DNA from: a virus
Taxonomy: Duplodnaviria > Caudoviricetes
Virus record (IMG/VR): IMGVR_UViG_3300029913_000001
Length of the DNA stretch: 64,000 bases
Direction: 5' to 3' (one strand)
Part shown: piece by piece, positions 12,023 through 44,557 of the stretch
Layout of the letters: each line of letters begins with the position of its first letter
Numbering within the stretch: position 1 is the first letter of the stretch
Program-made: the position numbers and the translations under genes
The notes under the pieces: model-generated
The model's database searches: none
What the model was told of the DNA's origin: nothing
The model's input: only the letters and a program-made list of their open reading frames with translations

Positions 12023-12883
12023 TTACTTTTCTTTTATTTCTTTCCATTCATTAACTAACGCTTTTATTTTTTCTACATTTCCAAGAGCTCTAAAATATCT
12101 GTTCGATAAATTACCATTAGATTTATAATTTTCTTGATTATCCCAAATACGACTTATAATCTTCTGGTTATTTTCTACGGTTACAAATGGGTGCCAAATA
12201 TGAGATACAGAACTCGGTAATGTTTTATGTGGGCCGTAAAGTGTGTCCATTACCCGCATTGCGGTAACATCTTCCCCTCCCCAACCACGAAATCTTTCAT
12301 CCCAGCCACCGGTAATTTTAAAAGCCTCCCTTGGCATAATTTGAAATAATGCACCATAACGATGCCCATGGACCGACCCAGACAACCCATTAAAATCTTT
12401 AGTTATTAAAATTTCATCGGTTTCGGGCTCATGATATTTATTATTTGAATTTGTTTGTAACAATTTTTTTGATGCAGATTCATTCAATCGAAAAAATTTT
12501 CTATATGGTATAAACCAGAGCGTATGTTTTTTCTTTCTTGCTTTTCTAATCTCCATAGCACATTTTAACACCGAATCGGTTGATATATATCCATCGGCGT
12601 CCGCAATAACAAAAATATCTCCCAATGCTCTTTTAGCAGCATAATTAACCGCACAGGCTTTTGAAAAGGGTTGGTTATTTATATTAACTTTTTCATCGAT
12701 TCCCATAATAATTTCTGCGCCCGGCAAATGAAATTTCCAATATTCATATAACCAGTTCCAATTTAGAGTTCGTTGATTAGCTGAAGGCGAAGAATAAAAT
12801 GGAACCAGAATGCTAATACCATTGCCTTTCAAGCAAAAAAATTTTGCGATAGTAAATTTAATTAGTTGGTAATTAATTTTCAT
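12023..12883 (-). CDS. Glycosyltransferase, GT-A fold (GT2/GT7-like)
   Basis: FVIADAD (DxD) and GGWDERFRGWGGED motifs. Confidence 0.85.
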   Translation of the reverse strand: MKINYQLIKFTIAKFFCLKGNGISILVPFYSSPSANQRTLNWNWLYEYWKFHLPGAEIIMGIDEKVNINNQPFSKACAVNYAAKRALGDIFVIADADGYISTDSVLKCAMEIRKARKKKHTLWFIPYRKFFRLNESASKKLLQTNSNNKYHEPETDEILITKDFNGLSGSVHGHRYGALFQIMPREAFKITGGWDERFRGWGGEDVTAMRVMDTLYGPHKTLPSSVSHIWHPFVTVENNQKIISRIWDNQENYKSNGNLSNRYFRALGNVEKIKALVNEWKEIKEK

Positions 12884-13644
12884 ATAACTTTTCCTAATTC
12901 TCGAAGTGCATCATAAATTGAAAATTTGACTTCTTCGACAAGAACTCTAGATGGTTCAACCATTTTTCCTAACTCAAATGGCGTTCTAATTGACGCGCTA
13001 TAATCTCGAAATTTAAATAAGCCGCCTTCATTCGCCATTTTTTCGCAAAGTTCTACACGCCGTGGAATTCCGCCAAATGAATCAGCCACAATCATTCCAT
13101 GTAAAGAAGACGTAACTATTCTACGACTAGCACCGATTTCACTAATCACCTGTAACGGCGGATCTAAAGGATTAATTACCTTAATAGAAAATTTATTTGG
13201 AATTAATTTTTTAAATCGACTAACTAATTCTGTATCTCGCCAATGAGGGACAATTCCCAAATCCCATTGTTTTTTAATTGGCTCAATTAATTCATTTGCT
13301 AATATACCAGGATCGCCCAATGTAAAATTACCGCTAAACCCTCTAGCAGATAATGGGCCGCGCAAAGCTAAAATTTTTGCAGTTGAACCAAACGAGCCCA
13401 ATCTCGAATTCTCAAATAATTTTCCCGACCCCACAATGTAACCATCCCAGTCAGGAGGAATATATTCTAAAATTGATCCGCAAACCGTAACCAATGATCT
13501 CGAAATGGTATCTCTTTCCACTTGTTTAATATCGGCAAACCGCGAAAGAATCAACGGAGTTAACGCATCCCCAAAATTAGGCATTTTATTCCACCAAAAC
13601 GCTTTAATTGAAGAGTTTGCTCTAAAAAATTTTGAAAGAATCAT
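12880..13644 (-). CDS. Polysaccharide pyruvyl transferase-family protein
   Basis: NFGDALTP, GSIL, ALRGPLS, LGDPG and TSSLHGMIVADSFG motifs. Confidence 0.85.
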   Translation of the reverse strand: MILSKFFRANSSIKAFWWNKMPNFGDALTPLILSRFADIKQVERDTISRSLVTVCGSILEYIPPDWDGYIVGSGKLFENSRLGSFGSTAKILALRGPLSARGFSGNFTLGDPGILANELIEPIKKQWDLGIVPHWRDTELVSRFKKLIPNKFSIKVINPLDPPLQVISEIGASRRIVTSSLHGMIVADSFGGIPRRVELCEKMANEGGLFKFRDYSASIRTPFELGKMVEPSRVLVEEVKFSIYDALRELGKVI

Positions 13645-22158: not shown

Positions 22159-23499
22159 TTACATATTCTTTAAGTCGATATATGCGTATTCACCAAAAGG
22201 TGGAACAATGTTGGGAGTAGAAATTATCCAGGTTACATCAGTGTAAAATTCATCTCCCCAGGTATTATTTGGATAGCCATCAGTGAAAACGATTAGCCTG
22301 GTTGGAACTATTCCTTCTTCCTTAAGATAATCAAAAATACTTTCGAAGGAAGTACCGCCACCACCCATAGGTTGATAGTTGCAAATATCTTCACCATTTT
22401 CGGAGGTAAAAGTTTGCGGATTTAATACCACGGTATCGAAGCAAAAAACTGTGATAGCATATTGAGGAAATTGTTGCATCATTCCATTAACTTCGGAAAG
22501 AAATTGTTGAGCTTCCTTCGAATTAATCGAACCGGACTGATCGATTGCAACAACAACGTTAAGCATTTTTTCAGTGGTAAGTCCGGGAAGAATAGCTTCC
22601 AAACCCCAACCCTTACGGCAAATTCGAGTAAAACTGTAATCAGCCGGAATCATACTATCAATCTGGCATTGCAGAAGTTCTCGCCAATCCATCTTCGGGG
22701 CCGTTAAATTCTGAATTAACCGATTGATACCGGCCGGAAGAGAACCGGCTGCGCAAAGTTTTGCCGCATTGACAATATTGTCGCGCATCTCAGCTTTGAT
22801 CTGATTACGCTCTTCATCGCTTAATTTAGCGGGACCGGATTTTGATGGTTTCCCATCCTGCCCGCCATCACCAGAACCGTCGCCCGTCTGGCTCGGATCT
22901 AAATGCTCATCCAACAACTTATCCAGCATTTCGTCTAGTGACATCTGACCAGATCCGCCACCCTGACCGCTGCCATTGTTTTTTTGCTGATTCTTTTGGA
23001 GGTCTTCGTATACGTCCTCACTCAGCCATCCACGATATTTAATATCGTGCAACCCGACATCCTGTTTAACTTTATGCGTGCGTCCGGTAACCGGGTCCTT
23101 TACTTCAACCTCTTCCGTTGGAAATTTTCCAACATTCGCTAGAATCAAATCGTCATTAACGACATAATCAGCGGCGCAATTATACAATTTCCTATTTCGA
23201 CCTTCATTTCGGCCTAAATGGTCAAAAACCAAATGACTGATTTCGTGAGCGAAAACAAACACGAGCTCATCGTTTGTTAAATTATCGACGAATCGATGGT
23301 TATAATACAAATATTTTCCATCTACCGCCATCGTGGGGCACCACTCGTCAGCAGGTTGCATTTGCAGCCGCATTGCCAACGACCCGAAAAACTTCTGCGT
23401 CCAAAGCATCCCTACGCGAGCTTGAATAATCTTCTCGTGTACACGATCTTCAACCTCTTTCGAGATTGGCTCTTTTGAAATGTTTGCCTTCTTATCCAT
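22159..23499 (-). CDS. vWA-domain protein with N-terminal metallopeptidase-like domain (DUF2201-like)
   Basis: FVFAHEISHL (HExxH), AIDQSGSI (MIDAS), GGGGTSF and VFTDGY motifs; ATG at 23499 lies just downstream of a promoter. Confidence 0.85.
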   Translation of the reverse strand: MDKKANISKEPISKEVEDRVHEKIIQARVGMLWTQKFFGSLAMRLQMQPADEWCPTMAVDGKYLYYNHRFVDNLTNDELVFVFAHEISHLVFDHLGRNEGRNRKLYNCAADYVVNDDLILANVGKFPTEEVEVKDPVTGRTHKVKQDVGLHDIKYRGWLSEDVYEDLQKNQQKNNGSGQGGGSGQMSLDEMLDKLLDEHLDPSQTGDGSGDGGQDGKPSKSGPAKLSDEERNQIKAEMRDNIVNAAKLCAAGSLPAGINRLIQNLTAPKMDWRELLQCQIDSMIPADYSFTRICRKGWGLEAILPGLTTEKMLNVVVAIDQSGSINSKEAQQFLSEVNGMMQQFPQYAITVFCFDTVVLNPQTFTSENGEDICNYQPMGGGGTSFESIFDYLKEEGIVPTRLIVFTDGYPNNTWGDEFYTDVTWIISTPNIVPPFGEYAYIDLKNM

Positions 23500-23505
23500 G
23501 ATTAA

Positions 23506-23534
23506 AGTATATTGCCTTTCCACAAAAAAGTCAA
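23506..23534 (-). promoter_or_regulatory. sigma70-type promoter
   Basis: TTGACT-17 nt-TATACT. Confidence 0.8.
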
Positions 23535-23696
23535 GAAAATTTAAGTCCTTTAAAATCAACAGACCATTAAAATACCGCCCCACGAGCGTTTATGCCATAC
23601 CCAGCCACGTTCAGACCCCTTAAGGGGCGTCGTGGGGCGTTATTTACAAAATTGCCCCTTTAAAATCAACAAGTTGCAAAGCAACTTTTATCGTTC

Positions 23697-23740
23697 AATC
23701 AACGAGCCAAGCAGGTTTAAACCTGCTTGGCTCGTTGATT
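23697..23740. terminator. Perfect 44-bp palindrome after the AAA ATPase gene
   Basis: AATCAACGAGCCAAGCAGGTTT|AAACCTGCTTGGCTCGTTGATT. Confidence 0.75.
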
Positions 23741-23748
23741 ATACCATA

Positions 23749-24960
23749 TTACCGAGTGGTTTGCAGTGCATACTTCGCAAACTTCTCAATAAACTGCGGC
23801 CAGCTCTTAAGGTTTACAAACTGATACTTTGTACCCTTAAGGGAAACGCCAAAATTAAAATTGGAAAATTCCATACGAGCCGCCATCATTCCAATTTCCA
23901 ATTCCACCTGAGTGAGAATGAAGCCGTTAAAATTATCTAGCATCTTCATCCAAGTTTTCACATCGTTGTCGTTATTCCACTTCCGATCAGCAACCTTACG
24001 GTTCGAAACCGAAATGGATGTTCCTGTAGTAACACTATTATTCGTCCAAAATTCATTCATTTCGTACAGCATACCCACAATCAACTGATAGTGAGCAGAA
24101 ATCTCTCGAGTATTAATCGTGGTAACCTTGCCGTTAAGAATATCAGACGGCTTCGGCAATCCCTTACCAACCTTCAGGTATGCCATAAAATCGGTGGCAG
24201 TACCCGCGCCCACAGCAGACGTCATGAATTCACGAATTTCCGTATCACTCAGCTTCTCCTCGTCGGGCTCGGTGGTAATCAACTGGCTCGCAAATTCATA
24301 GCTGCGCGGAGTAGGAAACGACTTGTCGGCGCTAGTTGGATCAAATTCATAGAGCTTATGCCGAAAAGTCGAAAGGAAGGAAACGATATCCGGATGAATC
24401 TTGGCAGGAATAGCCCAATCAAGCCATGAATCAAAATCGGCCTTAATTTCAAAATGAAGGAACCGGTTTGACAACGGCGCCGGCATACGGAAGGTAACAC
24501 CGCGATCTGTTTCGCGATTGCCAGCGGCGAGGACGCAAACATTATCGGGCAACGTATATGTTCCAACCTTACGGTCAAGAACAAGTTGATATGCAGCGGC
24601 TTGCACCGACGGCGGAGCGCTGTTCATCTCGTCAAGGAAAAGAATGACGATTGGAAAACCGTCGCAAAATTCCTTGGTTGGTAATTGCTCGGGAGGAGCC
24701 CAGCACATTACATTACGGCCATTTTCATCCTTTGCAGGATACGGAATGCCCTTAATGTCAGTCGGATCCATCTGGCTCAACCGAATATCAATAACAACTC
24801 CGCCGAGTTCCTTGGCGAGCGCATTGATACCGCAGGACTTTCCGAGGCCAGGGCCACCCCAAACAAACGCGGGACGCTTAACCTTAAGGCACCGCTTGAG
24901 CCGGAGAACCAGATCAGTCATGGTAAGAGCATTAGATGTGTCAGTTCGATTTGAAACCAT
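23749..24960 (-). CDS. MoxR/dynein-related AAA+ ATPase
   Basis: GGPGLGKS Walker A, ILFLDEMN Walker B, AAGNR and PLSNRF motifs. Confidence 0.9.
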   Translation of the reverse strand: MVSNRTDTSNALTMTDLVLRLKRCLKVKRPAFVWGGPGLGKSCGINALAKELGGVVIDIRLSQMDPTDIKGIPYPAKDENGRNVMCWAPPEQLPTKEFCDGFPIVILFLDEMNSAPPSVQAAAYQLVLDRKVGTYTLPDNVCVLAAGNRETDRGVTFRMPAPLSNRFLHFEIKADFDSWLDWAIPAKIHPDIVSFLSTFRHKLYEFDPTSADKSFPTPRSYEFASQLITTEPDEEKLSDTEIREFMTSAVGAGTATDFMAYLKVGKGLPKPSDILNGKVTTINTREISAHYQLIVGMLYEMNEFWTNNSVTTGTSISVSNRKVADRKWNNDNDVKTWMKMLDNFNGFILTQVELEIGMMAARMEFSNFNFGVSLKGTKYQFVNLKSWPQFIEKFAKYALQTTR

Positions 24961-26768: not shown

Positions 26769-27422
26769 TTATGAATGACTGATTCCAGGAATGCATTGCG
26801 CTTTAAAAAATTCTCGTTCGTCATTAGCTATCGAGCTGTCTTCATACCAAGGAAGATGTTCAATTACATAGGGAAAATCTAACCTTACATGCCCGGCAGG
26901 CGGCCACTTTGCCCAGCCTGGCTCATACATTGCAAATGTAGTGTCTATTGCAGCACGCCAACAATCGCCTTCTTTAGTTCGAGTATCCCAATACTTACCT
27001 TCACTAATTAGCATTTCTTGTTTCTTTGCATAATGCGCAGGAAGATTATCGATTCGAATAGCCGGTCCAACTTTAATAGGAGCATATCTATCGGCAACTT
27101 CGTTCATTTTCCTTACTAAATCTTTCGGACAATTTGCATCGGGGACAACATCGGGATCGGTAACAATATAACGAGAAGTTTGAATCGGAGACAACCCTAA
27201 ATGCCAAAATGCATCTTGACCCAAATTTTTCTTTCGATTCAAAACCAATAAATTACTTTCATCATAATATTTCAATAAGGGTTCCCAGGTCGATGCATTG
27301 TCAATCACTGCAATTTGAGTCATTCCCGCCGAATGCAACCAATCAACCAATTTTCGAAACCCACGTTCTAAATTATTAAAATTTGTAATATAAATAGGAG
27401 TTGCTTTCCAATCAGTTATCAT
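26769..27422 (-). CDS. GT2-like glycosyltransferase
   Basis: VIDNAST, KNLG, YIVTDPD (DxD) and IDTTFAMY motifs. Confidence 0.7.
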   Translation of the reverse strand: MITDWKATPIYITNFNNLERGFRKLVDWLHSAGMTQIAVIDNASTWEPLLKYYDESNLLVLNRKKNLGQDAFWHLGLSPIQTSRYIVTDPDVVPDANCPKDLVRKMNEVADRYAPIKVGPAIRIDNLPAHYAKKQEMLISEGKYWDTRTKEGDCWRAAIDTTFAMYEPGWAKWPPAGHVRLDFPYVIEHLPWYEDSSIANDEREFFKAQCIPGISHS

Positions 27423-27910
27423 TCACTTTCCTCAGTATATTCGAACTCTAAATCAAGCTTTTCTACTACAAAGTCATCTAATTTAATTTTAAAATCAGGT
27501 AACGTTTTAGGAATATCTCCCTCATAATTTTTAGCAACAGAAATATGAGGAATATATTCCGCAAAATCATATGTTGCACCCATATCTTTGGATGCATTAA
27601 AAATAGTTGTCAGCTCCGAATCTTCTAATTTTAGAACTAGCAAATGATCTTTCCCAAAAATTTCCCAACCGATAGGATTAACATTAATAGGAACTTCTGG
27701 ATTAAGATTGGCTAGCTCTGGCACTGGCTTACGAGAATAAACAATAGTTACATGATATTCGCTAGGATCCACCAAATTCTCAAAATTCTTCTCTTTTAAC
27801 CAAGCCGATAATTTATTACGAGACTTATCGGATAATGTCATCTTAGCATAGGTACCCGACGTGGGTTCTTTCTGTTCCTCTTCCATTAAAAAATCACTAA
27901 ACAATTTCAT
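27419..27910 (-). CDS. acb1: Acb1/gp57B-like 2H phosphoesterase (anti-CBASS candidate)
   Basis: GTYA..., YHVTIVYSR, GATYDFAEYIPHISV parallel the T4 Acb1 motifs HSTICYSR and GATHDFDDYTPHITL as I recall them. Confidence 0.8.
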   Translation of the reverse strand: MKLFSDFLMEEEQKEPTSGTYAKMTLSDKSRNKLSAWLKEKNFENLVDPSEYHVTIVYSRKPVPELANLNPEVPINVNPIGWEIFGKDHLLVLKLEDSELTTIFNASKDMGATYDFAEYIPHISVAKNYEGDIPKTLPDFKIKLDDFVVEKLDLEFEYTEESE

Positions 27911-27915
27911 ATTCG

Positions 27916-28284
27916 TTATACGTATCCTCTTGCAAAATTTTCGATATCATCCTGAAATTTAAAAAGCAAAGCAATCTGTTCATCAGCAATATATAAAATC
28001 GAATCTGTTGATTTTCCGTAAAAATAATGAGGGGAAGGCATTCGAGTTAACCCGATAAGAAGAGCGGCGGTCCATGTAATACCTAGCGGTATACTAAATT
28101 CGTAAAAGGAAATTTTGGCTTCGCGAAAACGTTCAAATCCTTTTTCACTTAATCGCATACTACTATTATTTCCAATACGATGCCACCAAAATTTATCTTC
28201 GCCATATGGCAATTCGATGCCAGTACGGCGCAAATATCCACGATATACTTTAGCAGTCCATTCGTCTTTTGTTAATAAACTCAT
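27916..28284 (-). CDS. Hypothetical protein
   Basis: Intact ORF in operon (WW...N...MRLSEKG...MPSPHY). Confidence 0.65.
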   Translation of the reverse strand: MSLLTKDEWTAKVYRGYLRRTGIELPYGEDKFWWHRIGNNSSMRLSEKGFERFREAKISFYEFSIPLGITWTAALLIGLTRMPSPHYFYGKSTDSILYIADEQIALLFKFQDDIENFARGYV

Positions 28285-29312
28285 AGTGATAAAGTTAATC
28301 CTACGTTAGGAGAGTATCCAATATAAGATACTGGTATTCCAAATCTATGCTCTATGTCCCAAATAAAAAATTTAGTTTTATCTGTTAAATCATCAAACCT
28401 TTTTGCATTAATATTCTCACAATCTAAATAATCAACAAAATTAATAGCTAATTTGGTTGGCCGATTAATTTCAATTGCTCTCTTTAATAATTCATAGTCA
28501 AATCGACCGACTCTTCTTAATTTTTTAGTAACCGTTGTATATTCCTTGATTGAATGAGAATACCCACTTTCCTCCTGTAGCGTTTCCCAATCAATTTCAT
28601 TATATAATGGCACAGCCTGCTGACCGGCTACTCTGATTGGAAAGGTTCGAAGTACCATAACTATTTCATTTACCAATAAAGGACTAATTCCGCATTCACT
28701 GATGCATCCCGACGCAGAAGTATCTCTAGAAGTTGCTTTAGGATAAAATCCGCCGTGATAAAGTGAGAGCCCAAATCCTTGGGTGCCTTCTACCAGAATA
28801 TTTTTACCATCATCGATACCTGTATTTATTTCCTTCGATGCATCAACTATAAAAGATTTAATTTCAGGAATATCTTTTGCTAATATAATATCATTACCAC
28901 GAAGAATCTTACGAGATACCGCCGCGCCAACGCCACATAATGTCGAACTAATATTAGTTCGCATATTAAGGTCATTTTCATCTCTAATATCTTGAGGCTG
29001 AATTATCATAGCATTTGCGTCGATACCAACTCGTTCTGGTCCTAATTTTAATAAATTTAATTCGGCTACCAGAACATCGATATCAATTAAACCTCCGGAC
29101 GGAATTAGCAATCTAGAGTTTAACCTAAGAATTCCGCTAGGTATTTGTCGAAGCACATGATTTACTCCATAATTATCGGTAAAACAATGTCCCGAATTTG
29201 GGCCGCCGCACCTAACACATATATCGATATTTTCTTTTTGCGTTATGAAAGAAGAAATTTTACCTTTTCCTTCAGAGCCAAACTGACCGCCAACAACTAC
29301 CCAAACGCCCAT
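28281..29312 (-). CDS. purZ: Short-form adenylosuccinate synthetase-family enzyme with PurZ/PurZ0 signature
   Basis: GGQFGSEGKG (Ser where PurA has Asp), GPNSGH, EGTQGFGLS, RTFPIRVAG, EYTTVTKKLRRVG and NFVDY; ATG at 29312 after AGGAG. Confidence 0.65.
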   Translation of the reverse strand: MGVWVVVGGQFGSEGKGKISSFITQKENIDICVRCGGPNSGHCFTDNYGVNHVLRQIPSGILRLNSRLLIPSGGLIDIDVLVAELNLLKLGPERVGIDANAMIIQPQDIRDENDLNMRTNISSTLCGVGAAVSRKILRGNDIILAKDIPEIKSFIVDASKEINTGIDDGKNILVEGTQGFGLSLYHGGFYPKATSRDTSASGCISECGISPLLVNEIVMVLRTFPIRVAGQQAVPLYNEIDWETLQEESGYSHSIKEYTTVTKKLRRVGRFDYELLKRAIEINRPTKLAINFVDYLDCENINAKRFDDLTDKTKFFIWDIEHRFGIPVSYIGYSPNVGLTLSL

Positions 29313-29313
29313 A

Positions 29314-30306
29314 TTAACTCCTAGGAAAAGCCGTTCCAAGCAACTGAGAAAAATAATTTGCCTGGTCACTAATTTTATTTAACTCATACTTCCCACAGAA
29401 TTTTAAAAAGTGAAATCCTAGCTGAGGGACCGACTTTGGTTCACACGCATCGGCTATTGTTTCAGAAATTACCGTACATATTTCATCCGGTTGTTTAGAC
29501 AAATCAACTAATCCCACATTACGGTTGTAATCATCTAACACTCGATGCTCTAGGCCCTCATGATCTGTCCAACGAGTTAACATAAAAGCATTCCAAGAAA
29601 ATCCCTGTCTATTTCGATCATCAAACGCTTCTTGCATACCCACTTTATTCTTTGATCCTTTTTTACGAGCTCCCGGGTAGGCGGCGAATACATTATCTGT
29701 TACGCAACCACGCACCGCTTTCTCAAATACAGACCAGTGTGGGTCATCTGGCATTTTTGGAGAGCCGGTTTTTTTATCTTTTACAGGATTATTTTTATAA
29801 TCAAAAATACCGTTAAGTGTAATAGTTTGATCCATAATACCATCATACATTGTAACATTGTCGGCGAGTAGCTGAACAAAATCTTTATCCGAACTTACAA
29901 CAATATGGGCATCATCAGGATGGGACTGAATAAATCCAGCTACCAAATCATCGGCTTCTAAAATGGGATTATATAAAACAGTGCAATTGGTACGCTCAGT
30001 TATAAACTTTTGAAAATCGGAAAACGCCGAATAAAAAATAGTGTCTAATTCTTGCTGTGCCGGCGTCGCTAGCGCTCTTTTTTCCGCGCGATTTCTTTTA
30101 TATGGAGCGTAAACCGATTTCCTCCACGATTTTCCATCAAATGCAAAAATTATATGGTCGGCTTTCTGCACTCGCCATAACTTTCCCAAACTTGCGAAAA
30201 TAATATGCAGACACATACCGGCAATTTCGTCAGGTGTTCCTTTAACCGTGTACTTGGACCGGTTAAATAAATGGGATGCGTCAACAATTAAAAATGTATT
30301 CTTCAT
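29314..30306 (-). CDS. rnh: 5'-3' exonuclease / T4 RNase H
   Basis: LIVDAS, FAFDGKSWRK, YKRNR, LEADD, SSDKDFVQL and DNV motifs. Confidence 0.9.
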   Translation of the reverse strand: MKNTFLIVDASHLFNRSKYTVKGTPDEIAGMCLHIIFASLGKLWRVQKADHIIFAFDGKSWRKSVYAPYKRNRAEKRALATPAQQELDTIFYSAFSDFQKFITERTNCTVLYNPILEADDLVAGFIQSHPDDAHIVVSSDKDFVQLLADNVTMYDGIMDQTITLNGIFDYKNNPVKDKKTGSPKMPDDPHWSVFEKAVRGCVTDNVFAAYPGARKKGSKNKVGMQEAFDDRNRQGFSWNAFMLTRWTDHEGLEHRVLDDYNRNVGLVDLSKQPDEICTVISETIADACEPKSVPQLGFHFLKFCGKYELNKISDQANYFSQLLGTAFPRS

Positions 30307-30795: not shown

Positions 30796-30826
30796 AAAAT
30801 TATTATATACTTTCTAACTTTAAAAT

Positions 30827-31198
30827 TCAATAATTTTCTGATCTACCATTCTCTATTAATTTCTTTTTTATCATTCGACGTTTATCAGGATCGGCAATTT
30901 CTTGTTCAAATTCATCTGTGAACATGCTGTAACTTATCTGTCGAAACCAAGAATCAACCATTTCTTGATCGTTATGTCCTCGATATCCATATTTAATTAA
31001 TCGAGCGATAAAAATGTCATTCCAATCCAACTCAAAAGACCCCTCAGATAAATTATCCGGGTCTATGTCGAAATGAACAATTCCAACCCAGGGTTCTTTC
31101 GCAGCGGTTGCAGCATTTTTTTCGGCTAATAAATCTTTTGATAATTTCGCAGACCTATGTTTCTTAAATATTTTTCTTAACTTCGCACGTATTGACAT
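30827..31198 (-). CDS. Hypothetical protein
   Basis: EPWV...FELDWND.FI..L...GY.G...VD.WF; intact ORF in operon. Confidence 0.65.
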   Translation of the reverse strand: MSIRAKLRKIFKKHRSAKLSKDLLAEKNAATAAKEPWVGIVHFDIDPDNLSEGSFELDWNDIFIARLIKYGYRGHNDQEMVDSWFRQISYSMFTDEFEQEIADPDKRRMIKKKLIENGRSENY

Positions 31199-32059: not shown

Positions 32060-32590
32060 CTAATTTACATAAATCAACTTAATTTTGGTTTCATCAAACA
32101 TCGAAAGTGAAATTTTAAAATCCTCACCCCATCGAGGATGATCTACGTCTGGGTTAATGCACGAAATTTCTTTAATACCGGCTTGAATAATTGCTCCTGC
32201 ACAACCTTAGCAAGGAAACCAATCTAATGCAATCCCCATTCCTTCTAGCGACGTTCCGAGACGAGCTGCATTATAAATTGCATTCGTTTCGGCATGAACA
32301 GTATATTTGTATTTTAACGGACGCTCATTTCTTTCATCTATTTTCTTAATTGCTTCGAGGCGAACTGCACGCGGAATTGAACAACCCACTTGACGTTCGC
32401 GTTCTTGTAATTTCAAGTCAAATGCCTCTCCTGAATCGTATACTCCTCTAGGAAACCCGTTATATCCAATACTAACGATTGAATTAGTAGTTGGATTGTA
32501 AATTACGGCGCCAACCTTTGAGGATGTATCTTTGCTCCACTTAGCAAAAAATGATGCAGCCTCTACAAATCTTTTATTCCAATTAATCAT
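32060..32590 (-). pseudogene. dCMP deaminase with one in-frame TAA in the PCxxC motif
   Basis: KVGAVI, GYNGFPRG and HAETNAI motifs; WFPC*GCAGAIIQAGI...RWGEDF continues in frame to TAG at 32060-32062. Confidence 0.85.
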
Positions 32591-33645
32591 TATTTAAAAA
32601 ACCTCATCATACCGTGTGAACTAAAAAACTTTGAATATGAATTATCCAAATAATTTTGGGTAGCAGATCGATCATACAATGAAAGAATAAGTCGTATTCG
32701 CTCGACTAAATTCATTCGATTTCTTTCATAAGATTTCCAATTTTCTGTCCACACAGACGGATACAAAAAATCTCGATCATGCTTAAAAATTTCTGAATAA
32801 CTTAATCTATCCGGGGCAATTGGTATTGCACCTAAAATTGGTCCCTCGGATCCCATCGAAATACCCAAGGTTTCCTGCAATGCCGCGGAAAAAACAATTT
32901 TACTCTTTGCCAGCAAAGTATGATACTCATGTTTACTTAGCGGTGTATCTTGGCAAACAATAAATTTCATCTCTGGAATATATTTAGCAAGATCTCGAAA
33001 AATTTCAACTTGCTTTTCTGGTGCGATTCGATGGGGAAATAAAATAATATCTTCTTTTGGAATCGTTTGATATGGTTTTAATACATCAACCATATATTCA
33101 TAAGGATGCCCGCATCGAATAATTCTTAATGGTCCAATATCTTCACCTGTATGCGGATATGCTTTGAGGAATAAATCCTTATGATAATTGGTTGCAAAAT
33201 ATACATGATCATATGCAAAAAACATGCTCTGCTCTGCATACTGAATCCATTTTTTTGGACCAATTAATCTTCCGAGAAAATCTTGAGAGTCATAATTTCC
33301 TGCATGTATCTGGGCATGAAGTGTTACTGGAATACCCAGTAATTCACTCATATATTTTACATTAATTACTGAGGGATTCCAAAAATCAGTAAACAGAAAA
33401 TGATCACCGGCTTTAATAATGCCATCACAAAACATTCTACTAATCTGTTCAAGCTGATTACTTTTCCAGGCATTTGTTCCACCGAAGTTTAAAAATGCTC
33501 CTGGAGTAGTTGCCTCTGGGATGTTAGTTGGGCCAGTTATAACCGTTACATCAAATCCTTTTGATCGAAGTAACTTTGGAATATGAACGCTCCACTGGGA
33601 AGTGTAACGATTTTCCAAACTTTCGAGTTCAACAATATATATCAT
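32590..33645 (-). CDS. GT-B fold glycosyltransferase
   Basis: HFLFTDFWNP, HAGNYD, LFPHRIAPEKQ, QETLGI and PDRLSYSE motifs; TAATG coupling to the deaminase gene. Confidence 0.75.
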   Translation of the reverse strand: MIYIVELESLENRYTSQWSVHIPKLLRSKGFDVTVITGPTNIPEATTPGAFLNFGGTNAWKSNQLEQISRMFCDGIIKAGDHFLFTDFWNPSVINVKYMSELLGIPVTLHAQIHAGNYDSQDFLGRLIGPKKWIQYAEQSMFFAYDHVYFATNYHKDLFLKAYPHTGEDIGPLRIIRCGHPYEYMVDVLKPYQTIPKEDIILFPHRIAPEKQVEIFRDLAKYIPEMKFIVCQDTPLSKHEYHTLLAKSKIVFSAALQETLGISMGSEGPILGAIPIAPDRLSYSEIFKHDRDFLYPSVWTENWKSYERNRMNLVERIRLILSLYDRSATQNYLDNSYSKFFSSHGMMRFFK

Positions 33646-33653
33646 AATTAATC

Positions 33654-34106
33654 CTATTGGATAAATTCCATATGAGCGCCGTTTTCTCCATCTTCGGAAA
33701 TATCAATAATTACATCTCTGCTAGGATATCTTTCCTCAATCTGAATAAACAAATCCTCACACATCATTTCACAGGATCTATAATCCAATTTAAGAATTTT
33801 ATCATCATAAAAACTTTCGAGCCACTGTTTAAAAAGGATAAATTCTATATCTCGATCGTTCGAATTAACAGAAATTTGAACTTTAAAATGGAAAATATGC
33901 CGATGAGGTGAAGCAAGATAAGAAACTTTTTCTAACGCAGGATCGTCTGCTGCGGCAGGATAATAATGAATGCCAGATTTTTGGAATGTAACCCAGATAA
34001 ATTTATTTACATTTGATAATCTAAGAGCTTGATTATTCTTATTTGCTATTTTAATAGCAGATACTATTAATGCTTGTTCCTCTTCAAGAGTGTTTTTATT
34101 TACCAT
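33654..34106 (-). CDS. QueD-like T-fold protein with LxxxHRHxF motif (DpdL-like)
   Basis: YLASPHRHIFHF, RDIEF, SCEM and EDGENGA motifs. Confidence 0.7.
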   Translation of the reverse strand: MVNKNTLEEEQALIVSAIKIANKNNQALRLSNVNKFIWVTFQKSGIHYYPAAADDPALEKVSYLASPHRHIFHFKVQISVNSNDRDIEFILFKQWLESFYDDKILKLDYRSCEMMCEDLFIQIEERYPSRDVIIDISEDGENGAHMEFIQ

Positions 34107-34993
34107 TTAATATATCCTCTTCCATAATTCTTTGGCCTATTTAAGGCATCGCTGAATGCTTTCTGCCATTCACTATTACGATCATAACAGGTAGTCCAGA
34201 ATTTGTCAATGTCTAAATAATTTGATTCAATATAGAGTCTAGCCTTATGCATTGCATCTAGAAAACATGATGCTCTGGGACTAGGGTGAACCACAACAGC
34301 AGAGGCCCAATCCATTTGAGAAGTATCCATCTTTTTACCAACCGCATTAATAATCAAAGCTTCGTTATTCAAAATATTTTCCGAGGAAGTTTCATTGCCA
34401 GCTCGAATATCAATGATTATATCATAGCTATCAGAATGTCGTTCATTAAGAGTTATACCTTCCGATAGCCAAATATCTAAATTACTATGCCCATCAATAT
34501 CAATAACTCCGATATTATTATATAGTTTTAATGTCTGATAGGCAACATATGCAAGAAATCCAGTTCCTAATATTAAAATATTTTTACTATAATAAATCTT
34601 ATCCGGCATTAATGTACACGGAAATAATATCAAATTAATTCCGCACGCAACCGGTTCTAAGATGTATTTCGGCGCAGCTTCTGGAACAAATACATATTCA
34701 TTTGCACGAACGTTATAAAAATCTGAATATGCAGGCTCGCCGCGAGTCGCGACATAATCTCCAACGCTGATATCCTTTATATCCTTACCAACTTTTGTTA
34801 CCTGTCCCAAACCTTCATGTCCGGACATAGTATAAGGTAAGGTAAATTTACCTTGCATCATTGCAATATCACTGCGACATATACCGGTCATTATACTTTT
34901 AACTTCAATTTGATTGCTATCTGGCTCGGGTTTATCCCAAAACATTTCTCGAAACTTATCGTCCCCATCTGTTACTAATAATCGAGTTTTCAT
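34100..34993 (-). CDS. Zn-dependent medium-chain dehydrogenase
   Basis: GICRSD and GHEGLG catalytic Zn ligands, EPVAC, GTGFLA Rossmann loop. Confidence 0.85.
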   Translation of the reverse strand: MKTRLLVTDGDDKFREMFWDKPEPDSNQIEVKSIMTGICRSDIAMMQGKFTLPYTMSGHEGLGQVTKVGKDIKDISVGDYVATRGEPAYSDFYNVRANEYVFVPEAAPKYILEPVACGINLILFPCTLMPDKIYYSKNILILGTGFLAYVAYQTLKLYNNIGVIDIDGHSNLDIWLSEGITLNERHSDSYDIIIDIRAGNETSSENILNNEALIINAVGKKMDTSQMDWASAVVVHPSPRASCFLDAMHKARLYIESNYLDIDKFWTTCYDRNSEWQKAFSDALNRPKNYGRGYIKW

Positions 34994-35037
34994 TTATACC
35001 TTATCTAAAATCACTATTTGATTATTTTCGGCATCAT

Positions 35038-35910
35038 TTATAGCGTATGTAAAAACCTATCAATTTTATATTGGTTATACCAAAAATCTTCATTATCAAA
35101 ATTATGAAGACAATCTAAAATCATTGATTCATATGCTTCTTCTGGACAAAGACCCAATGGAAAGAAATCTTTTCCATTGAAAAAAATACCAATTCGATCT
35201 GGTTCGTTTGTTTTCCACGCGGCATCTAAAATATATGTTTTCCCGCAAATATCGGCTACAATTTTTGCAGTATCGTCCACATCATATACTCCGTTTTCAT
35301 TTACCGGTCCATAATCAGAACCATCGTGCGCAATAGTTTTTAAATCCCAAACCTGACGTTTAATATTCTCAACAACGGTGCAATACTCCCAATTTGCACC
35401 GGCTAGTGCAATCATAATGCTAGCAAGATGTGGAAGAATATCCTTACTAATTCCACCAAGAGATTTTGCTTTTTCAGTAAACCACGAACCCGGGCGAGGA
35501 ACTCTATTCTTAGTTCGCCACTCGATATCTATTATCTCTGTTTTTGCCGCTCGTTCGATTAACGCCGGAATTTCTTTTCGCCACATATTATTTTTAGTCA
35601 TAGTAATTCGAGTGTTAGGATTTAATCCTACCAATCGATTCCATCGTAATTGGCTTTGCACTCCCGGCTTTTCGACGAATACAATATCCGTTTTAGCTGC
35701 AATTTTTTCAGCTATATCTTCATGCAAATAATTAGGAACACAAATATGGGCTATATCAAAATGCATTGTACTTGGAATCTGTTCAACCGAAGTATAATCC
35801 GGAAACTTCAAAACATCGGGATCTACTCTAATAATAGTAGATCCCGCTCGTTCGTAAATTGGCCTATATACAGCATCGCCAAAACCACAACCAACAATTA
35901 ATATATTCAT
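35038..35910 (-). CDS. Gfo/Idh/MocA-family oxidoreductase
   Basis: IVGCGFG, ICVPNYLH, VFVEKPG and GGI..D..PH motifs. Confidence 0.85.
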   Translation of the reverse strand: MNILIVGCGFGDAVYRPIYERAGSTIIRVDPDVLKFPDYTSVEQIPSTMHFDIAHICVPNYLHEDIAEKIAAKTDIVFVEKPGVQSQLRWNRLVGLNPNTRITMTKNNMWRKEIPALIERAAKTEIIDIEWRTKNRVPRPGSWFTEKAKSLGGISKDILPHLASIMIALAGANWEYCTVVENIKRQVWDLKTIAHDGSDYGPVNENGVYDVDDTAKIVADICGKTYILDAAWKTNEPDRIGIFFNGKDFFPLGLCPEEAYESMILDCLHNFDNEDFWYNQYKIDRFLHTL

Positions 35911-36736: not shown

Positions 36737-37869
36737 ATGGATATTTATTCAGACAAAACTATCAACTTCGTATTATGTTCTATGAAAATTCATCATGGAA
36801 AATATTCTTATCCTCAAACCATATTTCGAATTAACACCGAAAAAGTAATTATAACATGCCCTATACACGGAGATTTTCAGCAAACACCCAAGATGCATCT
36901 TAACGGTACTAACTGCCGATTATGCTCTTATAAAAATAACTCTGAAAAGTATACAAGAACAAAAGAACAATTCATTAATTTAGCCAATAAAAAACATTTG
37001 AACAAATATTCATATGATAAATCAATATATGTAGGCTGCAAAATTCCATTAATAATTACCTGCCCTATACACGGAGATTTTCAGCAACTACCGGCCAATC
37101 ATTTGATAGAAAGTGGTTGTTCCTATTGTTCTCATGGTGCGGTACGGCAAATTTTATTCGAAAGGCAAATATAATTCATAAAAAATTCTATACATATCAA
37201 GATTCGGACTGTAGGGGCAGTGAAATACCATTAACTATTACCTGTCCCATTCATGGAAATTTTAGTCAGAAACCAGTTAATCATCTTCGTGGCAGTGGTT
37301 GTCCTGTATGTGGCCGGGATCGAACTACCTGGAATTTAAATGATTTTCTATTAACAGCTAATAAATTACATAATAAATATTATTCTTATGAAAAAATTAT
37401 TTGGCGCGGTGCACAAGAAAAAATTGAAATTATTTGTCCAAAGCACGGATCTTTTTACCAAAAAGCATACGGTCATATATATGGTGCCGGTTGCCCAAAA
37501 TGCCATCTAAGCCACGGTGAAAGAGTAGTTGAAAAATACCTATCAGAAAATCATATAATATTTTCTGTGCAAATTAAAATTCCAGAATGACGTGACAAAA
37601 AATCGATGCCATTTGATTTCGGTATTTTTAATTCTTCAAATAAATTATTAGGACTTATCGAATATCAAGGAGGTCATCATTATCTTAAAGTTAAATGGAA
37701 TAAAAACATGACAGAACTTGAGGCTGAAAGACGATTAAAGAAAGTTCAACATCATGATAAGCTAAAAATGGAATTTTGCCAGAAAAATAATATTCCATTT
37801 TTAGCTATTCACTATCAAGATAATGTTTCTGCGGTACTTTCAAAATTTATTACTCGTATAAATTATTAA
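36737..37869 (+). pseudogene. Disrupted free-standing endonuclease (repeated CPIHG zinc-finger units plus PD-(D/E)XK domain) inserted antisense between dpdA and folE
   Basis: Four TCPxHGxFxQ units; frameshift near 37150; in-frame TGA at 37588-37590 (KIPE*RDKKSMPFDF); IEYQGGHHY; late promoter ATAAATA at 36671. Confidence 0.8.
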
Positions 37870-40413: not shown

Positions 40414-41622
40414 TTATTCAAAAAAATCAAAAAAGGTATTAATTTTACGAGTCCCTTCTTCTATTGCTTTCCATATTGGTAACTTTCCCAAGAGATTTTC
40501 TAACTTTTTATCTACCACCGCGGCAATCATTGCATCATTGTCAAATGGTAGTTTAGTAAACCAATCCGGTAGATGGGATTCATCTGTTGGATAAGCAACC
40601 GAAGTCATATTCAGTTGATTCTCTTTTAAAGGGCAAACCACACACTTCTGCCCATCAACGATACGAGTATGAACATTATCGTTATTCATTTTTCTTAATG
40701 AATTCCAATTAATTGCCGCTCTGACGTGTCCAGGAACTCGATTACCTTTTCCTTGTGCAATTTGGTCCGCATAAAATGTTAGCTTGTTGACACGCTTCGG
40801 TGTACCTTGCTCATGTAATGGCAATGCTTTAAACTTATCCTTGAATATATTAATTTTTGCTGTTAAATCATCAACTGTTTTACCTTGTAGTAAATCCATT
40901 AATATTTCACTTAAAAATTTCTGGCAAACTTCCGGGGTATCACTGCGACGCAAATCTAATCCCATTGCTTTTAATTTTAAATGATCGTCACCATAAAACT
41001 TACCATCTTTAAAATAATTAAGAATTGCATATCGTTTTTTAGTAATATATAAACCACGATAACCTACTGATTCGCAAGATGATTTAATTAATTGACCAAA
41101 TTTATCCGGACAATTATACGATCTCTTCATATAATCGGCGTAAGAATCGTTAACTTGCTCTCCAATCTTCAAATATAGCTGAACTGCAATATCTCGATTC
41201 CATTCAACTTGACCTTCATCTATCATATCTTTCATCACTGGCCAAGCCGAAAATTGAGTTGAATCTGTATCCCCATAATGAATTGCTCTTCCTAGATAGT
41301 TATATTCTCCAGTTATACATTCATTAACAAACGAACTCTGATGCCTTACAATTCCCCTACCGGTTAAAGTAACCGATTGCCCTACACGTTTGTCAAAAAA
41401 ACGAGAACTTGGTTGGAGCAGCGTTCCATATGTCGCATTGAGTAGGAGTTTTTTTGCGTGCTGCAATCCATCATAATATTCTACCTGTTTTTTAATTTCC
41501 GATATGTTTTTAGAAAAAATTTTTCCATTTCGGATTTCAAGATTATTATTTGTTATAAATTGTTTAATATCCGAGATATTTCCATTAACAAATAACTCCC
41601 GAAGTTTTTTTACTTCCACCAT
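40414..41622 (-). CDS. gp43: Family B DNA polymerase, C-terminal subunit
   Basis: Motif B KLLLNATYG, motif C YGDTDS, KKRYA and GLDLRRSDTP; own AAGGA RBS. Confidence 0.93.
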   Translation of the reverse strand: MVEVKKLRELFVNGNISDIKQFITNNNLEIRNGKIFSKNISEIKKQVEYYDGLQHAKKLLLNATYGTLLQPSSRFFDKRVGQSVTLTGRGIVRHQSSFVNECITGEYNYLGRAIHYGDTDSTQFSAWPVMKDMIDEGQVEWNRDIAVQLYLKIGEQVNDSYADYMKRSYNCPDKFGQLIKSSCESVGYRGLYITKKRYAILNYFKDGKFYGDDHLKLKAMGLDLRRSDTPEVCQKFLSEILMDLLQGKTVDDLTAKINIFKDKFKALPLHEQGTPKRVNKLTFYADQIAQGKGNRVPGHVRAAINWNSLRKMNNDNVHTRIVDGQKCVVCPLKENQLNMTSVAYPTDESHLPDWFTKLPFDNDAMIAAVVDKKLENLLGKLPIWKAIEEGTRKINTFFDFFE

Positions 41623-42803
41623 ATATGATCCTTATTATAATTATACTCAGATAATGGCATCATTACAACACCTATTTCCTTTAATGTTTTACCACCATAT
41701 ATTTCCGAAAACCTAATTCGTTCAGCAAATTTCCTTTTAGTGGTGCCGGGAATAACAAAATTTAGTATTGATAAATCCCTGGGACTATGATTTTGCAAGG
41801 CACACCGTGATTTCATATACTTTAAAAAATCACCAAGTAAAAAATAATAATTTTCAAAATTAGCAACAATTACTTTTTCCAATGATGTGCCCGCTACTCG
41901 ATAATATGTATTTGAAAAATCTTTCTTCCCGATTAATTTAAATTTTTTATCACGAATATCTAATACTCTTTTATTATTTGGATTATTCGCAGTTGCAAAC
42001 CCTTTATTTTTAAAAATTCTTCCTTCGATAAATCCTTCAGGACGTGGCGCATTTTCATTAATTCTTAAAGTTTCCCCGGTAGTATTATTTGACACCCATC
42101 TTGATTCTGTTATATATGAATAATCGGTGTGTTTTAACCAATCGGGGTATCCCTTAACAAACCCAGGTAAAATTTCATGCATTTGTGCTACTTCTCTCGT
42201 TTTAGGATTATACTGCCATATTTTACCAGTAAAATTCCGGCTGCATAAATCCTTTGACTCTTGGGTACGCACTCTACCTGTTTGAAAAGGCTCCCACTCA
42301 TCTGATTGAGATCCAATCGACATACGTAATAACTCTTTGGTTATTTTATGACGATAAATATTCGTATCCGCAAATAATTTCGACATATAATCACGCTGTT
42401 CTTGTGTTCGCACTTTCCCGGTATTATTTTCAGATATTAGTTTTGCAAATTCTATACGAACGGCCTGATATAACCGGCAGTTAGTAATTCCTCTAGATTT
42501 TGAGACACGGCGCATCTGATTAAATGAGTAAATACAACTGCGATCACGAATTGATTTAAATAATAGATAATGTAGAAGATAATGAGCTTTAGGTTCAACA
42601 ACGATAATATTCCAGGATTCATGCTTATATTCAGGAAATATCGCCACCGGCAAAATATGATGTTTCTCTACTGAACCCAAACCCGATTTGACTAAATCCT
42701 GCGGTAAAAATTTTAGCAATTTAAAATATCGAATAAATTGTCTTTCGTTTTTAACTTTTCCGGTATTGCGAAACATATTTTCCATGTAAAATAAATCGAA
42801 CAT
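41610..42803 (-). CDS. HNH homing endonuclease (Mob-like) between the polymerase halves
   Basis: EKHHILP...N...AHYLLHYLL, NUMOD-like RTQEQRDYMS repeats and GFxxGR motifs. Confidence 0.85.
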   Translation of the reverse strand: MFDLFYMENMFRNTGKVKNERQFIRYFKLLKFLPQDLVKSGLGSVEKHHILPVAIFPEYKHESWNIIVVEPKAHYLLHYLLFKSIRDRSCIYSFNQMRRVSKSRGITNCRLYQAVRIEFAKLISENNTGKVRTQEQRDYMSKLFADTNIYRHKITKELLRMSIGSQSDEWEPFQTGRVRTQESKDLCSRNFTGKIWQYNPKTREVAQMHEILPGFVKGYPDWLKHTDYSYITESRWVSNNTTGETLRINENAPRPEGFIEGRIFKNKGFATANNPNNKRVLDIRDKKFKLIGKKDFSNTYYRVAGTSLEKVIVANFENYYFLLGDFLKYMKSRCALQNHSPRDLSILNFVIPGTTKRKFAERIRFSEIYGGKTLKEIGVVMMPLSEYNYNKDHIWWK

Positions 42804-42901: not shown

Positions 42902-44557
42902 CTAAGAGGAAAGAGCATCAATTAAATTATCTGGTATCGTTATACCAAATGATAAATCTACAAATTCTTCTTTTTTTGCTTGTAGTTCTTTTCTTTCTGC
43001 ATACCATTTAGCTAATAATCCAGGAATAATCGCTTCTTGATCATAACTAAAAATTGTTCCGTTACCACTTAGCATCCATTTCTGATCGCTATAAAAAATG
43101 ATATCATAAATCTGAGAAGCTGAAAGAGTATCACTTGTACCTGTTGATTCCCAATCAATAATAATATCTACGCCAGGTTTTCGATCAATAACCGCCTGAT
43201 ATTCTAGAGTTGAAAAAACACCCTCCCACGCATGAGAATAAGTCATGCCTTTTTGTGACATTTTTTCAGCAACAAATGCCTCTGTAAGTGTGGGGCGCAA
43301 CTGTCCAATAATAGTTTCTATTCCCATGTTTAATGCACGAATTGTACTAGGATATAGTGAATTAATATCAATTACACCTAGCCATTCGTGAATTCCTACT
43401 TTTGGATCGGCTACATATGCGCCTACTGCGGCTGGCTCGTCATCGTCTTTCTGAGAACTATATTTTGGTTTATTTGGAACAATCATACCCAAATCATGGG
43501 CTCTATTAATAATAGCCTGGTCTGTTTTGGCTACGGTTCCCATACAAGTAGGTAAAAGAGTGGTTGTATCATGGGCGACAACATTAATAAGTTCAATAAA
43601 CTTTAATTTATTGTCTAACTGCTCCAATAGATTAACATCTTGCCTATTATATCTAATAAATAATTCAAAATCATTATTATATAAATCATCTAATGAACCT
43701 TTATATTCAGTCTTACTACTTCCTAATTCATATTCAGCAATAGAATTTAATGAATATGAATGACGTTCTTCATATGTGAATTTTCGGTATAAATCCATCA
43801 TATCGATATGAATCTTGCCAACTAATTCATACGTCTTAAATTCTTTACCATATTTTTCAACTACTTTAGCCTTTGGTTTTTCATTCCAGGATAATTCACA
43901 TAATCTACGAGTATCATCTTTACTCATCACTCGTTGGATTCGATTAACAAGATATGGAATATCGAATCCTTCGCTATTCCATCCTGATATAACATCGCTG
44001 TCTTCTAATATATCGAGAGCGGCATTAAGCATATCAACTTCATTATCGAACACATATGTGTTCTCGAATTTATTTGCTATACTCTGCCCCTCGTCGAAAG
44101 TAATAGTTTTAGGTGGAATTGCTACAGTAATTAGTTTATTACACCAAACTAGATCAATTGTAATTGCGGTTATTTTATTAAAGGGGTCCTCGATGGGCGA
44201 GTATCCCTTATCCTTATCGAAATCAACTTCGATATCGATAAGAGCAACATGAAGATCAGGAGCGGGCTTACCTTTATAATTTTCCGATAAACATTTAAAA
44301 GTAAGATTTAAATCTGACTCCCAAATCTTTTTATCTGTACCTTTAAGGATCGCTAGTTCTTTGTAAAATTCACTAGAAGTTTTAGGGGTAATTTTTGTTA
44401 GAGGCGTATTATAAATTGATTTATAAGACCCATTCGGATCATCGATATAGAAACTATAATCGACAGGATAATTATTGAACACTCTCTTGCCATTGACTCG
44501 TTCGATAACTTCAATACGATCATTCTTACGATCTATTCTAGCTGTAATATATGACAT
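42902..44557 (-). CDS. gp43: Family B DNA polymerase, N-terminal subunit (3'-5' exonuclease and motif A)
   Basis: DIEVD, GWNSEGFDIPY, YNRQDV, DINSLYPS and KWYAERK motifs. Confidence 0.95.
   Translation of the reverse strand: MSYITARIDRKNDRIEVIERVNGKRVFNNYPVDYSFYIDDPNGSYKSIYNTPLTKITPKTSSEFYKELAILKGTDKKIWESDLNLTFKCLSENYKGKPAPDLHVALIDIEVDFDKDKGYSPIEDPFNKITAITIDLVWCNKLITVAIPPKTITFDEGQSIANKFENTYVFDNEVDMLNAALDILEDSDVISGWNSEGFDIPYLVNRIQRVMSKDDTRRLCELSWNEKPKAKVVEKYGKEFKTYELVGKIHIDMMDLYRKFTYEERHSYSLNSIAEYELGSSKTEYKGSLDDLYNNDFELFIRYNRQDVNLLEQLDNKLKFIELINVVAHDTTTLLPTCMGTVAKTDQAIINRAHDLGMIVPNKPKYSSQKDDDEPAAVGAYVADPKVGIHEWLGVIDINSLYPSTIRALNMGIETIIGQLRPTLTEAFVAEKMSQKGMTYSHAWEGVFSTLEYQAVIDRKPGVDIIIDWESTGTSDTLSASQIYDIIFYSDQKWMLSGNGTIFSYDQEAIIPGLLAKWYAERKELQAKKEEFVDLSFGITIPDNLIDALSS

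Follow-up and report, generated by a model that had tools for sequence, protein, structure and literature searches.

A PurZ-like gene of a T4-like jumbo phage from peat is nested among cellular cassette genes and may encode a 2-aminoadenine precursor synthetase

We analysed a gene of the short adenylosuccinate-synthetase family, here called the PurZ-like gene, in a stretch of 64,000 nucleotides (the window) from an uncultured jumbo phage of peat, IMG/VR record IMGVR_UViG_3300029913_000001. The explanation that we consider the best, and hold tentatively at a little under even confidence, is that the gene encodes an intact GTP-type PurZ-like synthetase of the clade sister to PurZ0 plus PurZ, that it was captured from an Acidobacteriaceae gene cassette, and that the enzyme makes the precursor of the deoxynucleotide of 2-aminoadenine (dZ). 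The origin of the phage gene is an Acidobacteriaceae cassette, from which the core enzyme alone was taken; the reaction that the enzyme would catalyse is predicted from the residues of its active site.

Substrate pocket and family membership

The protein of 343 amino acids (aa), whose N-terminus reads MGVWVVVGGQFGSEGKG in the translation of the open reading frame (ORF), matches the adenylosuccinate-synthetase family far above chance (PF00709, E 3e-49). When its sequence was searched against solved structures, the best match was the short PurA of Pyrococcus horikoshii (E 1e-61), with the PurZ0 structure 7vf6 as the third-best relative (1e-35), followed by the PurZ proteins of phages phiVC8 (2e-34) and S-2L (5e-25). 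An AlphaFold model with a predicted local distance difference test (pLDDT) score of 81 gave template modelling (TM) scores of 0.84-0.89 to P. horikoshii PurA (2d7u, 5k7x) and of about 0.80 to both phiVC8 PurZ and PurZ0. Among NCBIfam models the best match was again archaeal-type PurA (NF003295), on which the protein reached 309 bits against a cut-off of 368 and genuine archaeal PurA sequences reach 510-586 bits. On the PurZ model (NF038379) it scored 219 bits against a cut-off of 300, and PHROGs assigned it to phrog_1211, labelled '2-aminooxy adenylosuccinate synthetase'.

The protein was compared column by column with 30 PurA sequences, 77 cellular members of the cassette clade described below, PurZ0 and PurZ (Table 1). 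The first-pass annotation of this DNA had called the gene a PurZ/PurZ0-type enzyme on the strength of four motifs, all of which are found exactly in the translation (GGQFGSEGKG at residues 8-17, RTFPIRVAG at 222-230, EYTTVTKKLRR at 257-267 and NFVDY at 291-295). The comparison upholds its view that the pocket residues are of PurZ/PurZ0 type and not of PurA type (Ser13, Ile226, Thr259 and Lys264), and that the GTP-recognising Asp is retained as in PurZ0 (Asp294). Ser13 stands at the position of Asp13 in the Escherichia coli enzyme and Lys264 at that of its Arg303. The PurZ-type 2-amino pocket consists of a Phe or Tyr, a Ser and the Thr in TTVT, and in the window protein Phe11 precedes Ser13. 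The roles of the residues at these positions are taken from PMC8342488 and bioRxiv 10.1101/2025.10.22.683976, where the change at the Arg303 position is attributed to the lost contact with the ribose 2'-OH. The window protein combines a PurZ-type substrate pocket with a GTP-type base site, and the residue comparisons support, without proving, an enzyme that uses deoxyguanosine monophosphate (dGMP) and guanosine triphosphate (GTP).

Table 1. Residues at pocket positions and the P-loop of the window protein and its relatives (numbering of the window protein)
Position	Window protein	PurA	Cellular cassette clade	PurZ0	PurZ
13	Ser	Asp (30/30)	Ser or Gly	Ser	Ser
226	Ile	Thr (30/30)	Ile	Ile	Ile
259	Thr	Gly (30/30)	Thr	Thr	Thr
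264	Lys	Arg (30/30)	Lys 54/77, Arg 15/77	Lys	Leu or Lys
294	Asp	Asp (30/30)	Asp 74/77	Asp	Asn or Gln
P-loop	GSEGKG	GDEGKG	G[SG]EGKG	GSEAKG	GSTGKG

Each of the characterized relatives resembles the window protein in part. PurZ0, the GTP-dependent 2-aminodeoxyadenylosuccinate synthetase of actinophages (Gordonia phage Archimedes, PDB 7VF6; Ghobes; Wayne), has the same short PurA fold, the change of Asp13 to Ser, the PIRVA and TTVT motifs, Lys in place of Arg303 and the guanine-recognising Asp; however, the two are only about 30-35% identical, they differ in the P-loop and they fall on different branches of the tree. The ATP-dependent PurZ of phiVC8, S-2L and Acinetobacter phages (PDB 6FM1, 7ODX) shares the fold and the Ser and Thr changes of the pocket, whereas its P-loop is different, Asn or Gln replaces the guanine-recognising Asp, and DatZ and MazZ are its companions. 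Archaeal short PurA (P. horikoshii PH0438, PDB 2D7U and 5K7X) is the closest solved structure and sequence and has the short architecture and the GTP site in common with the window protein, but it carries Asp13, the Thr in PTRVG, the Gly in YGTVTG and Arg303 where the window protein has Ser, Ile, Thr and Lys.

Phylogeny, the cellular cassette and the origin of the phage gene

In a maximum likelihood tree of 72 rows (LG+C20 PMSF, rooted on long PurA), the Asp-type archaeal short PurA proteins formed one group (97/82), and all Ser/Gly proteins formed a single clade, sister to this group and on a long branch (100/100). Two branches make up this clade: branch A (92/80), with PurZ0, PurZ, a Bacillus phage protein and several IMG/VR sequences, and branch B (94/95), with the cellular cassette genes and further IMG/VR sequences. 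The window protein lies deep in branch B, inside an Acidobacteriota subclade (100/100) and sister to four Acidobacteriaceae genes (100/98), and it has the Ser40 in GGPNSGH that is specific to this branch. Approximately unbiased (AU) tests rejected the trees in which it was forced together with PurZ0 (Ghobes and Wayne; p 0.003, log-likelihood difference 53) or with the whole of branch A (PurZ0 and PurZ; p 0.0009). The first-pass annotation had proposed a phylogeny with PurA, PurZ and PurZ0, and in this one the protein is separate from all three. With its position within the cellular clade, these two rejections and scores below both NCBIfam cut-offs, its assignment to PurZ0 or PurZ could not be sustained.

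Relatives number in the thousands in a large protein collection, the best 120 being 55-65% identical to the window protein; all of these have GGQ[YF]G[SG]EGKG and nearly all have RTFPIRVA, and several lie on bacterial contigs of megabase size. Deposited phages yielded no near-identical DNA, and their best proteins reached at most 36% identity. A scan of species-representative genomes found a relative in 381, and among these genomes the neighbourhoods of 80 host loci (L036-L115) were examined. Their taxa are mostly Acidobacteriota, with Nitrospirota, Chloroflexota, Peptococcaceae, Saccharibacteria, Halobacteria, Archaeoglobaceae, Methanosarcinales and one Lokiarchaeon also represented.

In nearly all of the 80 loci the gene is part of a cassette, with a protein of about 520 aa containing an RNase_H_2 domain encoded upstream and, downstream, a membrane-tailed Dcd-like protein whose C-terminus bears two hydrophobic segments. 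The Acidobacteriota cassettes have in addition an AAA_18 kinase of about 185 aa between the RNase_H_2-domain gene and the PurZ-like gene (two examples are given in Table 2). This kinase is similar to the kinase portion of the anti-phage dCTP deaminase (PADLOC 1e-14; weakly also NCBIfam NF041025), and the cassette is found beside type I restriction-modification genes, beside Tn7-like TniQ/TniB and downstream of a divergent helix-turn-helix gene; the PurZ-like protein itself matched no defence model of PADLOC. Each of the five host genomes that were tested, from two Acidobacteriota, one halobacterium, one member of the Dehalococcoidia and one Lokiarchaeon, encodes canonical full-length PurA elsewhere, and therefore the PurZ-like gene of the cassette is accessory and not housekeeping. 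In the searchable literature we found no description of a cellular PurA-like or PurZ-like cassette, nor of a defence cassette of this kind. The phiVC8 record notes the similarity of its PurZ to a protein of Solibacter usitatus, and Tong et al. 2023 (Nat Microbiol) reportedly describes PurZ0 and four archaeal Ser/Gly sequences.

The sequences nearest to the window protein (65% and 63% identity) sit in full cassettes. The phage has the core enzyme alone, recoded to phage composition and placed among early and anti-defence genes of the phage; the RNase_H_2-domain, kinase and Dcd-like partners are absent from the window. Of 72 columns with at least 95% conservation in the 77 cellular members, the phage copy keeps 69, and its three departures are R135K, G234V and P252S. 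Its GC content is 35.9%, with 23% at third codon positions (GC3), against a GC3 of 49-66% in the nearest host genes; the phage itself is at 36% GC and its hosts are at 51-60%. Since the conserved columns are kept and the composition is fully phage-like, the phage copy is an old acquisition maintained under the functional constraint of the family and fully ameliorated, and is neither a recent passenger nor a dead decoy. A dead decoy is ruled out by the intact catalytic residues. The phage members of branch B are scattered over at least three separate positions, namely this window, the locus L008 and a seven-member IMG/VR clade with complete genomes of 312 kb and 250 kb; therefore lone copies entered large phages, or persisted in them, more than once.

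Genomic context of the PurZ-like gene

The true start of the gene is the ATG at 29312 (Table 2), because AGGAG stands 5 nt upstream and homologues start at the same residue. This Shine-Dalgarno sequence slightly precedes the stop codon (29314-29316) of the upstream gene for a flap endonuclease (FEN)-type exonuclease, and 1 nt separates that stop from the ATG. The GTG at 29369, which gene callers chose as the start of a longer ORF, was rejected, as the reading frame would then run into the upstream gene. The PurZ-like gene belongs to a co-oriented run consisting, in order, of ORF161, the FEN/RNase H-type exonuclease, the PurZ-like gene, ORF122, Acb1 (directed against CBASS, the cyclic-oligonucleotide-based anti-phage signalling system) and a GT2-like gene, and this order, including the PurZ-like/ORF122 pair, recurs in other assemblies of the same phage. 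ORF122 has no relative in any compared locus, and a protein-atlas search with it gave nothing informative. The best sigma70-like match lies ahead of ORF161 and is a possible start of the unit that extends to the GT2-like gene, in a region where the number of such sites is not above chance.

Table 2. Coordinates of the features mentioned in the text (window positions unless a locus is named)
Feature	Coordinates	Strand	Remarks
PurZ-like gene, short adenylosuccinate-synthetase family	28281..29312	-	343 aa; stop codon within coordinates
Shine-Dalgarno AGGAG	29318..29322	-	5 nt ahead of ATG at 29312; read from sequence
5'-3' exonuclease, FEN/RNase H type	29314..30306	-	PF02739 E 6e-20; upstream of PurZ-like gene
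Orphan ORF122	27916..28284	-	122 aa; start overlaps PurZ-like stop by 4 nt
Acb1 anti-CBASS phosphodiesterase	27419..27910	-	PF23474 E 1e-25; two genes after PurZ-like gene
Sigma70-like promoter candidate	30802..30830	-	TTGAAT-17-TATAAT, 10/12; consensus match only
Family-B polymerase, two parts	42902..44557 and 40414..41622	-	
Homing/HNH endonuclease ORF	41610..42803		397 aa
DUF2201 metallopeptidase with VWA domain and MoxR-like AAA ATPase	22159..24960	-	GC 42-46% against 36% in the window
Polysaccharide pyruvyl transferase-like gene	12880..13644	-	
Ferritin-like gene	50373..50804	-	
Deazaguanine block	32590..35910	-	
QueD-like ORF	33654..34106		sole match phrog_17812
Two overlapping ORFs	36737..37590	+	DUF723 and zinc-ribbon matches
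Example cassette, L004	5881..10221		
Example cassette, L006	7890..12331		
Locus with a lone branch-B gene and RtcB, L014	11607..12803		IMG/VR 312-kb record

That the virus is a T4-like jumbo phage with a family-B polymerase, as stated in the first-pass annotation, is borne out by the gp20 portal (E 1e-91), the T4 baseplate proteins and the polymerase encoded in the window, by gp23, the gp21 protease, gp13 and the tail sheath in the flanking DNA, and by a longest contig with the gene of 292,778 bp. The phage is present in at least 17 peat metagenome runs. Its polymerase gene is split in two parts with a homing/HNH endonuclease ORF between them. A dCMP deaminase is encoded in the window, and the 9 kb to the left of it contain a weak match to a gp1-like deoxynucleoside monophosphate (dNMP) kinase and a small Nudix gene. 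The higher GC content of the metallopeptidase gene and the adjoining MoxR-like ATPase gene, relative to the window, points to a module acquired separately. The structural genes include one that resembles a polysaccharide pyruvyl transferase gene, and the late cargo array includes a ferritin-like one.

At higher coordinates, on the same strand as the PurZ-like gene, follow genes for a QueE-like radical SAM protein, the dCMP deaminase, two oxidoreductases, FolE and an ORF of 519 aa. The presence of deazaguanine genes had been claimed from the sequence: FolE is a solid match (E 1e-45), whereas the QueE-like gene scores below its cut-offs and the 519-aa ORF, likened to viral clusters of tRNA-guanine transglycosylase (TGT) and DpdA by language-model features alone, is a lead only. 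Sequence searches of the DpdA-like and QueD-like ORFs against solved structures returned nothing, and QueC was not recognised in the deazaguanine block. This block also contains genes resembling Gfo/Idh/MocA and Zn-dependent dehydrogenases and a 351-aa ORF without a family match, and the phrog matched by its QueD-like ORF has no known function. Two overlapping plus-strand ORFs between folE and the TGT/DpdA-like ORF, antisense to the operon, may be a mobile insertion of endonuclease type.

Searches for helper genes of the Z pathway covered the window and 9 kb to its left, out of a contig of which about 220 kb lies outside this range. DatZ of S-2L and phiVC8, MazZ of S-2L, and the Dut-like proteins of Ghobes and Wayne with their neighbours served as tblastn queries, none of which had a counterpart in the window (all E >0.3). 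About 50 window ORFs were also scanned with Pfam; HD, MazG, dUTPase and NDT domains were absent, and a Nudix in a late cargo protein of 335 aa was the only related domain. The earlier statement that no DatZ, MazZ or DpoZ is recognisable in the window is thus confirmed, and the search that it advised for HD-domain and MazG-like genes beyond the window was carried 9 kb to the left, where none was present.

Other phages with branch-B genes give a similar picture. HD domains are present in two of five IMG/VR records with such genes, MazG in one and FolE in none; branch-B genes in phages are therefore linked neither with the canonical helpers of the Z pathway nor with the synthesis of deazaguanine. 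Deazaguanine genes are likewise missing from all 80 host cassettes examined, and a promoter-like site separates the PurZ-like unit from the queE operon; the connection between the PurZ-like enzyme and deazaguanine raised in the first-pass annotation is not supported. The direct neighbours of branch-B genes in other viral contigs include no Z-pathway family, only RtcB and an exonuclease, and a comparison with 28 IMG/VR loci showed no synteny beyond distant PolB matches. In the 312-kb record with terminal repeats (L014), the lone branch-B gene is followed two genes downstream by an RtcB RNA ligase gene (E 3e-103).

Proposed function, alternatives and implications

According to the explanation that we favour, an ancestor of the T4-like peat phage acquired the core enzyme, and nothing else of the cassette, from an Acidobacteriaceae host in the distant past, and purifying selection has preserved it since. 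The product of the enzyme would be N6-succino-2-amino-2'-deoxyadenylate (dSMP), which host PurB and kinases would turn into the mono- and triphosphates dZMP and dZTP. In the cassette, the exonuclease-like, kinase and Dut/Dcd-like partners could plausibly serve the supply of dGMP; as a T4-like phage breaks down host DNA, which already yields dGMP in bulk, and encodes a dNMP kinase itself, such partners would be dispensable to it. Moreover, in a phage of 36% GC growing on hosts of 51-60% GC, dGMP would be in surplus and could be turned into an adenine analogue, much as its dCMP deaminase deals with surplus dCMP. The family-B polymerase could incorporate the analogue, probably only in part, and incorporation would be partial at most since no dATP-removing enzyme was found in the window or the 9 kb to its left.

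Several points weigh against this explanation. We infer solely from the residues that dGMP + aspartate + GTP -> dSMP is the most likely reaction, and about one-fifth of the cellular clade members have Arg and not Lys at position 264. DatZ, MazZ, DutZ and DmtZ were found neither in the window nor in the 9 kb to its left, and HD and MazG genes are absent from the complete 250-kb and the 93%-complete 105-kb records of branch-B phages; for these reasons a full replacement of adenine by Z is unlikely. Some Z in the phage DNA is possible, but hypothetical. The neighbouring Acb1 gene is just as compatible with a role in counter-defence. Three peat RNA libraries contain small contigs that touch the locus, among other parts the 3' end of the PurZ-like gene; these contigs cannot show transcription or strand, and are weak evidence that the gene is transcribed.

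The strongest competing explanation is that the enzyme alters nucleotide pools or disturbs the host cassette, and that there is no Z in the DNA: it would redirect or drain dGMP and GTP, for example to the detriment of the host, of competing phages or of the cassette, and might act through mixed dimers with the host enzyme or by pre-empting its substrate. We regard this as doubtful, although it accords with the defence-island-like settings of the source cassette, with the likeness of the cassette kinase to an anti-phage protein, with the location of the phage gene in one unit with Acb1, and with the same lack of a dATP-removing enzyme in the window and in the 250-kb and 105-kb phages. However, the phage copy retains the full catalytic set, which rules out a dead decoy, draining dGMP would starve the replication of the phage itself, the defence role of the cassette is putative, and its PurZ-like protein matched no PADLOC model. 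Less probable still is the view, close to the first-pass reading, that the gene is a true PurZ0 and that Z replaces all adenine in the phage genome. In all PurZ0 genomes there is a dutZ gene (PMC12884076), often with dmtZ, and neither neighbour was found in the window. The Ser/Thr/Lys pocket, the GTP-type Asp and the rank of PurZ0 among solved relatives agree with such a reading, but both AU tests, the GSEGKG P-loop and a polymerase of family B instead of the DpoZ-type PolA contradict it.

The two remaining explanations are unlikely. An enzyme acting on a nucleotide of the 7-deaza-(d)GMP type, to give a 2-amino-7-deazaadenine derivative, would have an analogue in the PurA-like ToyG step of toyocamycin biosynthesis. 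The FolE and QueE-like genes 2-7 kb away on the same strand, even with QueC not recognised, and the TGT/DpdA-like lead are compatible with it. Known DpdA systems, however, act on finished DNA, where they swap in the free base, and do not require a deaza-nucleotide, and neither the host cassettes nor the other phage records nor the intervening promoter-like site associate the two sets of genes; we find this explanation hard to credit. The one to which we give the least credence is an ordinary PurA acting as an auxiliary metabolic gene, which would convert inosine monophosphate (IMP) to adenylosuccinate and boost AMP. Archaeal-type PurA is indeed the best match both among solved structures and in NCBIfam, but the score falls short of the equivalog cut-off, Asp13 is Ser and three more PurA-invariant pocket residues are changed, the Ser/Gly clade stands apart from Asp-type PurA on its long branch, and its members coexist with canonical PurA in their hosts.

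To our knowledge, all phages with 2-aminoadenine DNA are small siphoviruses or podoviruses that replicate with PolA or PrimPol, and their PurZ or PurZ0 is accompanied by dedicated enzymes handling dATP and dGTP. Unlike them, the present phage has a PurZ-type pocket in a T4-like myovirus of 293 kb, encoded by a lone gene whose source is a widespread cellular cassette. A wider proposition, which we hold to be improbable, is that a T4-like jumbo phage of peat Acidobacteria with a family-B polymerase repurposed the core enzyme of a host cassette, probably an anti-phage one, and carries two modified purines, with 2-aminoadenine in place of part or all of the adenine without DatZ, MazZ or DutZ, and a deazaguanine derivative in place of guanine. 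If it were true, it would suggest the cellular cassettes as the reservoir from which the phage PurZ enzymes arose. The origin of the gene predicts an Acidobacteriaceae host for this uncultured phage. It also bears on whether the sister clade of PurZ0 and PurZ makes dZ precursors as well, on whether a large phage with an ordinary replicase can live with partial Z substitution or turn it to advantage, and on the movement of genes between the conflict systems of hosts and the DNA-modification pathways of phages.

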